The notes under the pieces were generated by a model, which was given only the letters and a program-made list of their open reading frames with translations, was not told the origin of the DNA and made no database searches. A stretch of 64,000 bases of DNA from contig CAURVB010000001.1 of assembly GCA_963528615.1 (NCBI GenBank), forward strand, positions 7,203-71,202, given 5' to 3'. Numbering within the stretch: the first letter of the stretch is position 1; every line of letters starts with the position of its first letter. The translations under genes were made by a program, and so were the position numbers. The stretch comes from an uncultured Candidatus Saccharibacteria bacterium (GTDB taxonomy: Bacteria; Patescibacteriota; Saccharimonadia; Saccharimonadales; Saccharimonadaceae). This document shows, in pieces, positions 6,994 to 44,122 of the stretch.

Positions 6994-7874
6994 TATAGTC
7001 TTCCTCCTGTTGGCGGTTGACCTTGACCTTTGGTTACGTAGGCTGTCGTGAGCTGGCTCGGGTCAATTGCCGCCAGTGATTCGCGTGATGAAGTGTCAGG
7101 GTTATATGAGGTATAGAATAGTTCACCCAATTGTCGAGTATTTAATTGTCGACTTTTGACACCTATTTGGAATAATCCGCTCATCACTAAATCAATTCGA
7201 TTCTTAATCTCATCCTTAGCTTTTGCGTACGCGACTTGGTCAATCTTTGTTACAGTCGCTTCTTTCTTGCCACTGAAGAAGCTACTAAACAGGCCCTTTG
7301 CCTGCTGTTTCATGACATTTGTATCACCGGCTGGATAATATGGTACGACGACATAGAAACTTTTATCCATAATATTGGCTTCTTGCGCTAAAACATCGAT
7401 AAAATCCATGTAATCGTCCATTAAAACATTAAGTAGCATGTTGTCTTGATTGCGCCTAATTTCTGCCAGTCTGTCCAGATATGGACCAATATCCACGCGG
7501 CGTGAACGAATGAGGATTTGGATTGGGAAATATAATGAATTGATAAAGTTCTGATAGCTAAATTCGATACCTTCTCGTTCACGGGCGCTCATCAGATCAA
7601 AGTTAATCGACTCACATTCTACTACTGCCCGAAAACTACCATCACTCATGATAATCATATTCTCGCGCATTTCGGAGAAAAGTAGCGTATTTTGGGTGCT
7701 AATTGGCCCACTCTTTTTTTGTTCTGGGGCTTTATCGGGTGTGGGTGAGGCTGGAGTGGGACCTGAAGCAATTGTACCCGGTACTGGTGATTGCGGTGCG
7801 CCTTGAATCACCGCATTGGCACTGGCCTGCGGAACTTGCTGATGTAGCTGTTGATCCTGTAACTCTGGTTGCAT
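6993..7874 (-). CDS. T4SS protein resembling the VirB4/TraC N-terminal module
   Basis: SINFDLMS..E..I..SYQNFINSL.FPIQILIRSR pattern; between prgI and virB4, overlapping stop/start. Confidence 0.65.
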   Translation of the reverse strand: MQPELQDQQLHQQVPQASANAVIQGAPQSPVPGTIASGPTPASPTPDKAPEQKKSGPISTQNTLLFSEMRENMIIMSDGSFRAVVECESINFDLMSAREREGIEFSYQNFINSLYFPIQILIRSRRVDIGPYLDRLAEIRRNQDNMLLNVLMDDYMDFIDVLAQEANIMDKSFYVVVPYYPAGDTNVMKQQAKGLFSSFFSGKKEATVTKIDQVAYAKAKDEIKNRIDLVMSGLFQIGVKSRQLNTRQLGELFYTSYNPDTSSRESLAAIDPSQLTTAYVTKGQGQPPTGGRL

Positions 7875-39830: not shown

Positions 39831-39878
39831 ACACTAGATGTAGCGGCTATAGTTAGTGTTGTACGCTATATATGTAGC
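39831..39878 (+). promoter_or_regulatory. Paired NrdR boxes upstream of nrdA
   Basis: ACACTAGATGTAGCGG (39831) and ACGCTATATATGTAGC (39863), 32 bp apart; resemble consensus acaCwAtATaTwGtgt. Confidence 0.75.
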
Positions 39879-39973
39879 GTACCCATAAATAAACAAAAAG
39901 GCAAATTATCCAAATGAGCCACCAGATGGGGTACTGGCGGCTGATTTTTAGCAGGGCAAATTAAGGAGGGTAC

Positions 39974-42376
39974 ATGCAACAAATCAACGTCATCAAACGC
40001 GACGGAACGAAAGAGCCGTTTGATGTCAATAAAATTAATGCGGCGATTTTGAAGGCTTGCGACGGACTGCCAGATCAGGTTTCTAAGGTGGTGCAGGTGG
40101 CAACCGAGCTGCCGCTGACGCTATTTGACGGGATTACCACCGAGCAGCTCGATCAGGCCGTCATCCAGACGACACTACAGAATGTCAAGGATGATCCAGA
40201 TTATGATAAAATCGCAGCCCGCTTGTTACTGAAGACTATTTATAAGAGTATTTTGGGCGATTACGAGACGGCAGACGAATTAAAGAAATTGCACGCGCGG
40301 GAGTTTCCGAAGCTTGTTAAAGCGGCGGTTAAAGATGGCTTACTTGATAAGCGGATGAGCGACGGGCGATTTGACTTGAAAAAATTGGGTGAAGCATTAC
40401 GGCCAGAGCGCGACGATCTCAGTAAATACCTCGGTGTAATGACTAATAAAAACCGCTATGCCTTGCGCAAACAAAGCGGCGACCCGCTGGAAACACCGCA
40501 ATTTACTCATATGCGTATCGCTATGGGGCTTAGCTACAATGAGCCAGACCCGACTGCGGCCGCGATTGAATTTTATGAACACATGAGTCAATTGGAATAT
40601 CTGCCAGGCGGCTCGACGCGGGTCAATGCTGGCGGCTCCTTCCCGCAGCTCAGCAATTGTTTTTTGCTAAATGTTGATGACGATATGGAATCAATTGCCA
40701 AGAGCGTGCGCGATACGATGTTTATCGCCAAGGGTACTGGCGGCATCGGCATCGGTTTTACTAAGTTGCGGGCAGCCGGTAGCCCAGTTAAGACTACTAA
40801 TACTGAATCAACTGGCCCAATTCCTTTCATGAAGATGATCGATACGGCGCTGTTTGCGGTTAGCCGTAAGGGCAAGAAAGCCGGTGCAGCCGCCATTTAT
40901 ATGGAGAACTGGCACCTTAATTTTGGGCAATTTATTGATTTGCGCTCCAATTCTGGCGACCCGTACATGCGGACGCGCTTTGCCAACACTGCGGTATTTA
41001 TCTCTGATGAATTTATGAAGCGGGTGCAAAAAGACCAAGATTGGTACTTGTTTGATCCAGCGGAAACGCCAGATCTGCCCGAGCTATATGGTGAGGAGTT
41101 CTCGGCGCGTTATAAGGAATATATTAAGCTAGCCGAAGCTGGCAAATTGCGCGTCTTTGAAAAGATGTCGGCTCGCCAGCAATTTAAGCAGATTTTAACT
41201 AGCCTGCAGGCCACTAGCCACCCGTGGCTCACCTGGAAAGATACCATTAATGTGCGGGCACTGAATAATAACACTGGTACAATTCATTTGTCCAACCTCT
41301 GTACGGAAATTACCCTGCCTCAAGACAAGGATAATATCGCCACCTGTAACTTGGTTAGTATTAATCTGTCGGCGTTTTTGCGTGAGGATAAGACGTGGGA
41401 CTGGGACCGTTTGCAAGAGGCTTCACGGGCAGCAATTCGGCAATTGGATAATCTAATCGATATTACCGAGACGCCAGTTAAAGAGGCAATGCACGCCAAC
41501 CAGCAGACTAGAGCTGTTGGCCTGGGCATGATGGGTTTTTCGGACGTATTGGAAAGACTCGGTTATTGCTATGAATCGAGCGAAGCTTATGAGTTAATCG
41601 ATCAATTGACGGAGTTTATTAGTTATCACGCTATCGACCAGTCGGCGGATTTGGCGGCCAAGCTGGGTAGTTATCCGACATATAACGGTAGTGGCTGGAG
41701 TAAAGGGCTACTGCCGATTGACACGCTGGAGACGCTGTCTACCGACCGTAAGGTTAAGGTGAAAATTAATAACAAAACCCGTCTAGATTGGGATAAATTA
41801 CGTAAGAAAGTTAAAAAAGGCATGCGTAACGCCACTTTGATGGCCATTGCACCGACCGCTAACATCGGTCATGTGGCGGGGACGACGCCGGGGATTGATC
41901 CGCAGTTTGCCCAGATTTTTAGCCGCTCAACTTTGAATGGTAAGTTTTTGGAGGTGAATAATAATTTAGTACGCGACCTCAAGGCGCTGAATTTGTGGGA
42001 CGAAATAAAAGAGGAAGTGTTCGCCAATCAAGGTGACATTCAACACATTGATGCTATTCCGCAGAAATTGAAAGATGTGTATAAAACCAGCTTCCAATTA
42101 AGCCCATACGCGTTCATTGAAGTGGCGGCGCGGGCGCAGAAGTGGGTTGATCAGGCAATTAGCCGCAATATGTATCTTGAAACTCGCGATATTGATGAAT
42201 ACGTGGAGATTTATTCTGAAGCCTGGCGGCGCGGTCTGAAAACCACCTACTACCTGCATGTTAAGCCGCGTCATCAATCAGAGCAGACCACAGTGTCGGT
42301 GGAAAAATTAGCAGAACAGAAGATTCGAACTGGCGCTAAAACGCGCGGGTTTGGATTTGCCAAGGTTAATAAATAA
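39974..42376 (+). CDS. nrdA: Class I ribonucleotide reductase alpha subunit with ATP-cone; lacks C-terminal Cys pair
   Basis: VIKRDG ATP-cone, SNCF, SNLCTEI, TCNL, APTA, KTTYYL. Confidence 0.97.
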   Translation: MQQINVIKRDGTKEPFDVNKINAAILKACDGLPDQVSKVVQVATELPLTLFDGITTEQLDQAVIQTTLQNVKDDPDYDKIAARLLLKTIYKSILGDYETADELKKLHAREFPKLVKAAVKDGLLDKRMSDGRFDLKKLGEALRPERDDLSKYLGVMTNKNRYALRKQSGDPLETPQFTHMRIAMGLSYNEPDPTAAAIEFYEHMSQLEYLPGGSTRVNAGGSFPQLSNCFLLNVDDDMESIAKSVRDTMFIAKGTGGIGIGFTKLRAAGSPVKTTNTESTGPIPFMKMIDTALFAVSRKGKKAGAAAIYMENWHLNFGQFIDLRSNSGDPYMRTRFANTAVFISDEFMKRVQKDQDWYLFDPAETPDLPELYGEEFSARYKEYIKLAEAGKLRVFEKMSARQQFKQILTSLQATSHPWLTWKDTINVRALNNNTGTIHLSNLCTEITLPQDKDNIATCNLVSINLSAFLREDKTWDWDRLQEASRAAIRQLDNLIDITETPVKEAMHANQQTRAVGLGMMGFSDVLERLGYCYESSEAYELIDQLTEFISYHAIDQSADLAAKLGSYPTYNGSGWSKGLLPIDTLETLSTDRKVKVKINNKTRLDWDKLRKKVKKGMRNATLMAIAPTANIGHVAGTTPGIDPQFAQIFSRSTLNGKFLEVNNNLVRDLKALNLWDEIKEEVFANQGDIQHIDAIPQKLKDVYKTSFQLSPYAFIEVAARAQKWVDQAISRNMYLETRDIDEYVEIYSEAWRRGLKTTYYLHVKPRHQSEQTTVSVEKLAEQKIRTGAKTRGFGFAKVNK

Positions 42377-42393
42377 AATAAAGGAGGAACGAT

Positions 42394-42507
42394 ATGGAAT
42401 ATCAAGATACATTACCGGGAATTGATTTGTTGGCGAAGGAAGCAGCGCAGCGAGCTGTTGGGCAAGAAGCATTATTTACAGTAGCTATAATAGAGGAGGA
42501 TGAATAG
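42394..42507 (+). CDS. 37-aa microprotein between nrdA and nrdB
   Basis: AAGGAGG RBS; MEYQDTLPGIDLLAKEAAQRAVGQEALFTVAIIEEDE; TAG abuts the nrdB ATG. Confidence 0.6.
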   Translation: MEYQDTLPGIDLLAKEAAQRAVGQEALFTVAIIEEDE

Positions 42508-43485
42508 ATGGGTATTTTAGGTTCAGGACTACGCGACGGTTTATCACTGCACCCAATTCGTTACCCATGGGCATACGACTTATACAACCAAGCAGTGGCT
42601 AACACCTGGTTTCCAAACGAGGTGCAGTTAGTACAGGATTTGGCGGATTTTGAAAAACTCAGTGACGAGGAAAAGCATGCGCTCAAAACGGTCATTAGTT
42701 ATCTTAACCCAAACGAGTTACTGATTAACAAGTCGCTGGCATTTGGTATTTACCCGTATGTCAATGCCGCTGAAGCGCAGCTCTATCTGTCAAAACAGAT
42801 GTGGGAAGAAGCCAACCACTTCATGACCTTTGAATATATCATTGAGACGTTTCCGTTTGACCGGGAGGAGATTTACGCGGCCGGCTTTGGCAAAAAATCG
42901 CTGGCTGACAAGGCAGATTTCCAGAACAAGCACCTGGATGTGATGCTGGATCCAAATCTTGATATCTACACGCTGGAGGGTAAGAAAGACTTTGTCCGCT
43001 CACTGGTGGCCTATAATATTGTGCTCGAAGGCATTTGGTTCTACTCGGGCTTTATGGTTGGCATGAGTTTCCGCCAGCGCAACTTGCTGCGTAATGTCGG
43101 CACACTGCTGGACTGGATTACCAAGGATGAGAATTTGCATCTAACCTTTGGTATCAATTTGCTGCTGACCATTTTGGACGAAAACCCAGAACTACAAACC
43201 CAGGAATTTGCTGAGGAAATTCGCGGGCTTATCCTACAGGCGGTGGAGCTGGAGAAGGAGTACAACAAGGACATGCTGCCAAAGGGCATCTTGGGCCTGA
43301 ACGCTGATTATGTCAATCAATACGTCATGCACATGACCGACCGCCGCTTGGTCGAGCTTGGGTTTGAGCCAGAGTACAACGTGGCCAACCCGGCCAAATG
43401 GATGGCTACCGCAAACGATACCTTGGAATTGGTCAATTTCTTTGAAAGCACTAACACTAGTTATGAAGTAAACACCACGAAATAA
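42508..43485 (+). CDS. nrdB: Ribonucleotide reductase beta subunit, class Ic-type signature
   Basis: W.P.E, NELLI (Glu first ligand), EEANHFMTF (Phe at radical Tyr site), LEGIWFYSGF, DENLH, C-terminal FFE...Y. Confidence 0.95.
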   Translation: MGILGSGLRDGLSLHPIRYPWAYDLYNQAVANTWFPNEVQLVQDLADFEKLSDEEKHALKTVISYLNPNELLINKSLAFGIYPYVNAAEAQLYLSKQMWEEANHFMTFEYIIETFPFDREEIYAAGFGKKSLADKADFQNKHLDVMLDPNLDIYTLEGKKDFVRSLVAYNIVLEGIWFYSGFMVGMSFRQRNLLRNVGTLLDWITKDENLHLTFGINLLLTILDENPELQTQEFAEEIRGLILQAVELEKEYNKDMLPKGILGLNADYVNQYVMHMTDRRLVELGFEPEYNVANPAKWMATANDTLELVNFFESTNTSYEVNTTK

Positions 43486-43490
43486 CTGCC

Positions 43491-43889
43491 ATGGACAAAA
43501 TTACAACAGATATTTTAGACACAGTTGAAGTTGGGGCTTTGGCGACTGTTAATCGTGACAGAACGCCGCTAGTGACGCCGCTCCACTTTGTACGTTATAA
43601 AAATGACAACATTATTTGGATCTCTGACCGGCAATCCTACCATGCTGTTAACGCCTATCGCAGCGGTGTTGTGGAATTTGTAGTGTGGAATGATCAAAAG
43701 AATGCTGTCTTTTTAACAACAAAGGTACGAGAGTTGCCAGAGGAAGAAGAGGCCGCGGCTTTGGAAGTGTACGCCAACAAACTGGGCGACTTTATGCCGC
43801 GTGTGGAGAATAGGCAAATTTACATCATGCCAATTGGCAAGCTTGATGAAAAAAACACAACAGGAAATTGGCGGCACTATATTGCATAA
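43491..43889 (+). CDS. Pyridoxamine 5'-phosphate oxidase-like (split-barrel flavin-binding) protein
   Basis: GALATVNRD.TP.VTPLHF...WIS...SYH..N pattern. Confidence 0.7.
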   Translation: MDKITTDILDTVEVGALATVNRDRTPLVTPLHFVRYKNDNIIWISDRQSYHAVNAYRSGVVEFVVWNDQKNAVFLTTKVRELPEEEEAAALEVYANKLGDFMPRVENRQIYIMPIGKLDEKNTTGNWRHYIA

Positions 43890-43937
43890 GCGCTATATAT
43901 AGCGTAATATAAGCGTAAGCGATACTAAATATATAGA
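43890..43937 (+). promoter_or_regulatory. Second pair of NrdR boxes, upstream of the 57-aa CxxC ORF
   Basis: GCGCTATATATAGCGT (43890) and ATACTAAATATATAGA (43922), again 32 bp apart. Confidence 0.7.
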
Positions 43938-43948
43938 AAGACAGGAAC

Positions 43949-44122
43949 ATGAACGCAAGTCAAATTATTTCTGACGACATGACATTGGAAGAAAAATTAA
44001 GCGCTATCGACGCGGCCTTAAAAGCGGCACAGGAAACAGCTGACGACCAAGCTAGTGCAAATGGTAGTGTTGCTGCACCCATTGATCCAGCTAGTCTGAC
44101 AATTTGCGACGGTTGCGAATAA
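43949..44122 (+). CDS. 57-aa acidic protein ending in CxxC, resembling the NrdA C-terminal cysteine tail
   Basis: AGGA RBS; MNASQIISDDMTLEEKLSAIDAALKAAQETADDQASANGSVAAPIDPASLTICDGCE. Confidence 0.8.
   Translation: MNASQIISDDMTLEEKLSAIDAALKAAQETADDQASANGSVAAPIDPASLTICDGCE

Follow-up and report, generated by a model that had tools for sequence, protein, structure and literature searches.

The genome of an uncultured Candidatus Saccharibacteria bacterium (assembly GCA_963528615.1) was studied around a ribonucleotide reductase (RNR) locus on contig CAURVB010000001.1, within a stretch of 64,000 nucleotides (nt; positions 7,203 to 71,202 of the contig) that we call the window, and whose own numbering is used for all coordinates given without a contig label. 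In this locus the large subunit of a class I RNR, NrdA, has no C-terminal cysteine pair of its own, and a gene further downstream encodes a free peptide of 57 amino acids (aa) with the terminus PIDPASLTICDGCE. Our comparisons make it very probable that this peptide is the trans-acting redox tail of a three-part class I RNR, as had been proposed in the initial annotation of this DNA; the proposal is supported by the homology of the peptide to fused NrdA tails, by its co-occurrence with tail-less NrdA, by the NrdR-type box before its gene and by the position of that gene.

A C-terminal CxxC is present in 1737 of 2022 class I sequences of a family survey (PMC9531940) and travels to and fro between the catalytic site and thioredoxin (Trx) (PMC11903788), in such a way that the cysteines of the tail reduce the disulfide of the active site and then receive electrons in turn from Trx or glutaredoxin (Grx) (PMC11903788, PMC3483043).

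A Cys-less NrdA and its probable separate tail peptide

The nrdA gene (39974..42376, + strand) encodes an 800-aa class I RNR alpha subunit with an ATP-cone and an intact active site (PF03477, PF00317, PF02867; NF005101/PRK06539), which scores above the cut-off for TIGR02506 and NF005101 and finds 5im3_A as its best solved match. Its cysteines are C29, C229, C443, C458 and C532, with none beyond the Y759/Y760 pair. In an alignment of 36 NrdAs, C229, N441, C443, E445, C458, Y759 and Y760 were invariant. The active-site residues, the YY pair and the gene of a beta partner expected for a class I alpha subunit are all in place, and the cysteine pair of its own tail is missing. C229, C443 and C458 are the only cysteines conserved in the 18 split NrdAs aligned; C29 and C532 were considered as substitutes and discarded, being private to the window NrdA within this set. 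The match to the NCBIfam model PRK06539 ends at model position 788 of 822, and the Cys-less tail (residues 761-800; 42254..42376, + strand) carries a basic R-G-F-G-F motif close to its end, at 42344-42358.

A Cys-less tail was found in all 80 related Saccharimonadales loci, with NrdAs at 81-100% identity, and this rules out an assembly error. In the window, CxxC was absent from every frame around the nrdA stop. The absence of cysteines after the TYY motif, as initially described, was thus borne out, and a frameshift that would restore a Cys tail was looked for and not found, the stop being common to the 80 loci. Among the 139 scorable NrdA representatives from the best 150, the tail cysteine pair is present in 128. 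The genome (612 kb, 84.5% complete), which the names of homologs assign to Ca. Nanosynbacter / Saccharibacteria, contains a single PF02867 match, the window NrdA, and no NrdD match was found at that completeness; as the sole RNR alpha found, this enzyme would need re-reduction.

The peptide gene (43949..44122, + strand) had not been annotated. Its product consists of a helix (about residues 13-38), an Ala/Gly linker and an end of the form P-x-DP-x5-CxxC-E, whose Cys53 and Cys56 are encoded at 44105-44116, and an AlphaFold2 model returned a helix at 13-38 plus coil, with a mean predicted local distance difference test score (pLDDT) of 69. The acidic composition first attributed to the helix (11 D/E, 2 K) holds for the whole peptide, the counts not being those of the helix. 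No match was found in Pfam or NCBIfam, PHROGs has no family for it (best E 3e-4, partial), and in the ESM Atlas it falls only in unnamed clusters.

That this open reading frame (ORF) is a real gene, as had been claimed, is supported by its conservation in 32 of 36 genomes of the same genus (the four without a match are 64-94% complete) and by a third-position bias, since 61 distinct 57-codon homologs showed 506, 320 and 1592 differences at codon positions 1, 2 and 3, respectively. An alignment of 21 peptides with identities of 23-81% showed no variation, in any of the 21, at either cysteine, at the D-P pair or on the K-L-x-x-I face of the helix. Of the 80 related loci, 76 contain the whole peptide gene (73 by pattern and 3 more by profile); of the other four, one has the peptide intact as far as the contig end, one is cut by the contig end, and two stop 484 and 1251 nt past the nrdA stop. 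Public sequencing runs, all in the form of contigs, cover only small shares of the region, and the sole RNA run covers just 42100-42255. A second, shorter paralog follows nrdB in one genome (G623; L351:1078-1200), with the helix and the terminal CxxC kept and the DP motif lost.

The nearest NrdAs with an intact tail, all from Patescibacteria (G409, G555, G204, P0123 and P0124; 52-62% identity), end in P-x-DP-x5-CxxC-Q, and a peptide profile found the NrdA-frame tail ends of G409 (E 1.6e-5) and G555 (E 1.8e-4) in a whole-genome search and, weakly, the fused tail of G204 (E 0.019). The peptide is therefore homologous to fused NrdA tails with a terminal CxxC, supporting the earlier suggestion that it is a split-off C-terminal tail. 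A motif filter left the window, 28 of 29 loci and 13 of 26 proteins for a 42-row tree, in which 15 split NrdAs formed one branch (98/96) nested among fused forms.

Distribution and regulation of the peptide gene

The predicted co-occurrence of the peptide with tail-less NrdA was confirmed in samples of the order, the phylum and the family. In the order sample (151 genomes), 6 genomes carry this NrdA and the same 6 carry the full-length peptide, which is absent from the 145 others, among them one unpublished genome (G069); a seventh peptide match is partial. In the phylum sample (401 genomes), the 8 genomes with this NrdA are identical to the 8 with a free peptide, and 21 more distant NrdAs among the 30 loci retrieved carry fused tails. 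Helix-only matches in 11 phylum genomes and in G141 were set aside as chance, as they lie in long frames and have no CxxC part. In the family sample (171 genomes), NrdA was found in 97 genomes and a peptide match in 99, including all 97, in such a way that 72 of the 74 genomes without this NrdA are also without peptide. In one exception (G662) the peptide gene and nrdB lie on a contig of 2.4 kb that breaks off immediately upstream of them. In the other (G706; L345:3620-3700), a genome in which nrdA had no match, a truncated, Cys-less peptide remnant adjoins a CTP-synthase-like gene and looks like decay after nrdAB loss. Among the 97 family genomes, 66 have the peptide gene in the gap before nrdB, no more than 300 nt from nrdA, and the remaining 31 have it behind nrdB; its distance to nrdA is at most 3.1 kb in all of them.

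Most Saccharimonadales carry instead a distant RNR of about 900-1000 aa and about 25% identity. The NrdA/NrdB/peptide set is patchy (97 of 171 genomes in the family and 3 of 147 genomes of other families), a distribution that suggests repeated replacement or transfer.

The same split was found in Microbacteriaceae. A tail-less sister sequence of the window NrdA (P0134) clusters with a Naasia protein, and its best 80 metagenome loci gave 79 readable NrdA tails, all Cys-less. In 77 of these 79 loci an ORF of 21-42 codons lies between nrdA and nrdB, its product ending in P-x-DPM-D/E-x-x-x-CxxC-Q; the other two loci break off 1 nt and 26 nt past the nrdA stop. Named relatives include Pseudolysinimonas kribbensis, Protaetiibacter spp., Homoserinibacter and Galbitalea, and in the set of protein matches to which they belong 120 of 120 are without a tail cysteine. 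A quick tree of 27 rows joined both split groups with a support of 92, so one origin of the Saccharimonadales and Microbacteriaceae splits is possible.

The peptide gene of the window is preceded by a predicted NrdR operator. The 16-bp core of the NrdR-type box is matched at 39831..39846 before nrdA and at 43890..43905 before the peptide gene (both + strand). The boxes had been described as two pairs with the same 32-bp spacing, and this holds for the first box of each pair as a core match; the second sites, at +32 (39863..39880 before nrdA and 43922..43939 before the peptide, + strand), are 2 bp longer than the canonical box. Both are 18-bp palindromes of the form CTA-N6-TAG. In the closest relatives this longer form is the usual and conserved one before nrdA. 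At the peptide gene, many relatives have a canonical site at +32 and others have none by the pattern used. A box was found within 250 nt before nrdA in 31 of 40 distinct upstream regions. For peptide copies located behind nrdB, 53 of 56 distinct upstream regions contain a box, compared with 0 of 3 where the copy sits between nrdA and nrdB and with a genome background of 0.012 per 120 nt. NrdR itself is encoded in the genome (TIGR00244 above cut-off, C5:21948). Known NrdR box pairs lie 31-32 bp apart (10.1101/2025.03.28.645925). A sigma-70 scan called no promoter before the peptide, and in our own reading -35/-10-like elements appear to flank the box there. Further NrdR-like boxes were seen away from nrd genes, namely a pair 20 bp apart at C5:28994-29029 and a single box at C7:7769-7784, followed by an ORF that we take to be GreA-like.

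Phage copies, proposed mechanism and rival explanations

Homologs of the peptide are also carried by phages, in a long and a short form. The long-form profile found 45 viral loci, at which no NrdA or NrdB match was obtained while positive controls matched; PF02867 was found in 0 of 37 whole long-form records and 0 of 17 near-complete ones, with 8 further records outside this count. The short form was found at 56 viral loci, and the 50 records searched gave no PF02867 match. Unannotated ORFs of 22-29 codons are present in the Clavibacter phages CN1A and CMP1 and in the Pontimonas phage phiPsal1, again without PF02867 (0 of 3); in CMP1 and phiPsal1 the short form is coupled to a holin gene. A search of plasmid and phage records gave no close NrdA (best 43% and 39%) and no long peptide.

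A Grx gene occurs in 11 of the 37 long-form records, always directly behind the peptide (11 of 11), overlapping the peptide stop in 7 and lying within about 190 nt in 4. These glutaredoxins belong to three sequence groups, one of which has a CVQC motif and is presumably NrdH-like, and two groups are 46-53% identical to the Grx-like ORF of the genome under study. In one genome with a split NrdA (G697), a second peptide copy has integrase and amidase genes beside it on its contig. The likeness to the host ORF and this second copy suggest that the carriers of the long form are probably Saccharibacteria phages. On three phage contigs (L221:6001-6308, L222:146-480 and L372:2900-3410) we observed either a tandem of two tail-like peptides that differ from each other or a short-type peptide of greater length with a Grx gene behind it.

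From the gene structure, homology, co-occurrence, operator-like box and phage carriage observed, we infer a scheme that takes in the expression of the peptide, its binding to NrdA, the electron transfer, the reductant and the purpose of the phage copies. After each turnover, the Cys53/Cys56 dithiol would enter the NrdA active site and reduce the C229-C458 disulfide, and the oxidised peptide would then be reduced by a Grx-like or Trx protein of the host; Grx-like (C2:23295-23582), Trx (C4:503-835) and thioredoxin reductase (C8:20047-20979) ORFs were recognised in the host genome by motif. The peptide would have arisen by tail fission in the NrdA clade whose fused ends read P-x-DP-x5-CxxC-Q. Its gene would usually have kept its place between nrdA and nrdB; a move to behind nrdB, under an NrdR-type operator of its own, would have taken place in some lineages, among them that of the window. 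Extra copies, in part accompanied by a Grx gene, are found in phages of the same hosts, where they would most likely serve to raise the electron supply to the host enzyme.

Several points weigh against the peptide being a dedicated RNR tail. Its support is comparative sequence evidence. The phage peptide occurs without an RNR large subunit, which was found in 0 of 90 records (0/37, 0/3 and 0/50), so that the independence from tail-less NrdA that the initial annotation had named as refuting is formally seen in phages. As peptide-only phages infect the same host groups and some pair the peptide with Grx, we read their carriage as support for action in trans. Of the long-form records, 26 of 37 are without Grx. 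The short form (77 of 106 scanned) mostly adjoins genes for holin, endolysin, terminase, HNH and virion proteins, and a Grx was seen once; a role in boosting deoxynucleoside triphosphates (dNTPs) would not explain this late-module setting well. In cells, the NrdA tails were read in just 15 of the 97 family genomes, all of them Cys-less, and the co-occurrence counts are not independent because they rest on kin that share one or two events (support of 92 for a shared origin). Finally, one genome of a distant NrdA clade (G298) has an intact tail together with a free 38-aa copy after nrdB (L170:1549-1665), the only case in 15 such loci examined. Free tails need therefore not be obligatory, and this copy may be a half-way stage of fission in an NrdA clade other than that of the window.

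The late setting of the phage short forms, including their holin coupling in CMP1 and phiPsal1, would fit a peptide that derives from the tail and now regulates RNR, as a competitive blocker of the active-site cleft or a metal-binding partner, with Trx, Grx or small thiols reducing the tail-less NrdA directly and phages tuning or shutting the host enzyme late. Small dithiols can reduce the active site directly in vitro (PMC4520616, PMC5704485), and re-reduction routes differ among class I RNRs (PMC11903788). An inhibitor would be unexpected, however, in the nrdAB operon or under a repressor box shared with it; cells and phages alike retain the two cysteines and their place at the terminus, and the Grx coupling in three phage groups points to redox cycling; moreover, NrdJa without NrdJb is not functional in vivo (PMC4520616). 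We consider regulation an improbable role for the peptide. A general small dithiol carrier with other targets, whose link to nrdAB would be historical, has in its favour that the peptide stands alone at about 100 phage loci and that second copies exist in G623 and on two phage contigs. Against this, the peptide of cellular genomes is gained and lost with the tail-less nrdA, from which it is never more than 3.1 kb away (97 of 97), and decays where nrdA was not found, as in G706, so such a carrier seems very improbable to us.

The tail could also be rejoined to NrdA by frameshifting, read-through or an assembly error, leaving no free peptide. The Microbacteriaceae-type loci lend something to this idea, as 70 of 77 peptides lie in the -1 frame relative to nrdA and in 57 of 77 the peptide frame runs back into nrdA without a stop over more than 30 nt. 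The other 7 of 77 lie in different frames, though; a stop occurs within 6 nt upstream in the peptide frame in 19 of 77, a slippery heptamer in 3 of 77, and the peptide start overlaps the nrdA stop in 55 of 77, as in ordinary translational coupling, a pattern for which frameshifting would be no general explanation. In the window, two genes and 1.57 kb part nrdA from the peptide, no CxxC frame exists near the nrdA stop, and that stop is common to 80 of 80 loci, so we give rejoining hardly any credit. The trans-acting redox tail is thus the reading that we retain. An extended form of it, which we hold to be evenly balanced between right and wrong, would be a mobile free redox micro-protein of a three-component class I RNR, in which one fission and inter-phylum transfer join Saccharibacteria and Microbacteriaceae, RNR-less phages steer host dNTP synthesis with a gene of 21-60 residues, alone or coupled to Grx, and the GFGF end of alpha may take the place of the aromatic anchor that the beta tail has lost.

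NrdB, the NrdA end and known systems

The genes of the locus, namely nrdA, a 37-codon ORF, nrdB, a PNPOx-like gene and the peptide ORF, are all on the + strand. The nrdB gene (42508..43485) encodes a beta subunit (PF00268) whose best solved match is 1syy_A (E 8e-71). It has Glu70 as first metal ligand and Phe108 at the radical-tyrosine site, both aligned with the same residues of 1syy_A, which we take to be the Chlamydia class Ic R2, and so shows the Glu ligand and Phe expected of class Ic; these signature residues suggest a Mn/Fe cofactor in an oral Saccharibacterium. NrdB has neither a cysteine nor a terminal aromatic residue (end at 43440-43485). The PNPOx-like gene (43491..43889, + strand; PF01243, E 2e-7), whose product has no cysteine, is placed between nrdB and the peptide in this genus. 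The 37-codon ORF between nrdA and nrdB (42394..42507, + strand) has a ribosome-binding site, and its product has no Cys and no Pfam or NCBIfam match. It was rejected as a component of the system, being found in 2 of 80 related loci, and is probably a recent insert or remnant.

The initial annotation also suggested that the peptide may dock on the basic end of NrdA, an idea that is so far unsupported. On its side is charge, with medians of +5 for the last 20 NrdA residues and -8 for the peptide (+2 and -6 in the second group). A GFG-like motif is found within the last 25 NrdA residues of 80 of 80 Saccharimonadales and 79 of 79 Microbacteriaceae-type loci; among 130 fused representatives, GFG is present in 5 of 5 with P-x-DP tails versus 1 of 125 others, so R/K-GFG already exists in fused relatives and predates the split. 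The motif also goes with the loss of the terminal aromatic residue of NrdB, present in 0 of 145 proteins of the GFG clade (0/78, 0/64 and 0/3) versus 15 of 15 outside it, and may for both reasons serve the NrdA-NrdB contact instead. The disappearance of the aromatic end of NrdB and the gain of a GFG(F) end by NrdA could mean that the anchor of the beta tail has been exchanged for one on alpha. The peptides of Microbacteriaceae are too short to include the helix, and an AlphaFold2 model of the natural fused homolog G555 was uninformative on docking, with a tail pLDDT below 50. Retention of the peptide through the basic end is therefore a possibility that we regard as somewhat doubtful, the larger share going to a peptide that diffuses freely or is held via another surface.

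Compared with the fused class I CxxC tails of G409, G555, G204, P0123 and P0124, the peptide has the same P-x-DP-x5-CxxC-Q/E end and the same predicted job. It differs in being a separate gene and chain, with an added N-terminal helix in Saccharimonadales and with replacement of the third Cys of many fused tails (C-P-x-DP), and also in having an operator-like box of its own when displaced and in being mobile in phages. The catalytic barrel of the window NrdA is whole, only the tail being detached, and a mobile element is absent from the break. In nrdHIEF-type operons, NrdH-redoxin or glutaredoxin is a small CxxC protein under NrdR control that carries electrons to RNR. The peptide resembles these proteins as a small CxxC product encoded with RNR genes, but it has no thioredoxin fold with an N-terminal CxxC (no PF00462 or other Pfam match, and a model of helix and coil), and it is a predicted substrate of such redoxins, which it adjoins in phages.

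The closest parallel in principle is the split class II RNR of Pseudomonas aeruginosa. Its NrdJb performs the thiol exchange in trans and is required in vivo (PMC4520616), transfer between subunits has been shown for a class II enzyme (PMC5704485), and, as here, the re-reducing cysteines are on a separate product and the catalytic chain is without them (PMC4520616, PMC5704485, PMC9669993). NrdJb is, however, a folded six-Cys zinc domain of 150-220 aa, without sequence similarity to class I tails, that serves a B12-dependent enzyme (PMC5704485), whereas the free tails found here are two-Cys peptides of 21-77 aa (57 in the window) whose partner is a class I (Ic-type) NrdA with NrdB. No class I RNR whose tail is encoded by a gene of its own turned up in a literature search from which most subscription papers were absent, and the supplements of the family surveys PMC9531940 and PMC9669993 could list tail-less class I sequences. 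The principle of a separate redox product is known from NrdJa/NrdJb, and the class I case appears to be new.

The usual view is that the tails of class I RNRs work through being tethered. With a natural free tail, this disordered and hard-to-study arm becomes a titratable reagent, which would let re-reduction in cis and in trans, the contacts between tail and active site and the timing of re-reduction be measured directly. The finding also warns against taking the tail-less NrdAs of databases for truncated sequences, and it accounts for a conserved "hypothetical protein" of oral Saccharibacteria and for an unannotated gene of 21-42 codons in culturable Microbacteriaceae, pointing as well to a very small phage gene that would act on the nucleotide supply of the host.

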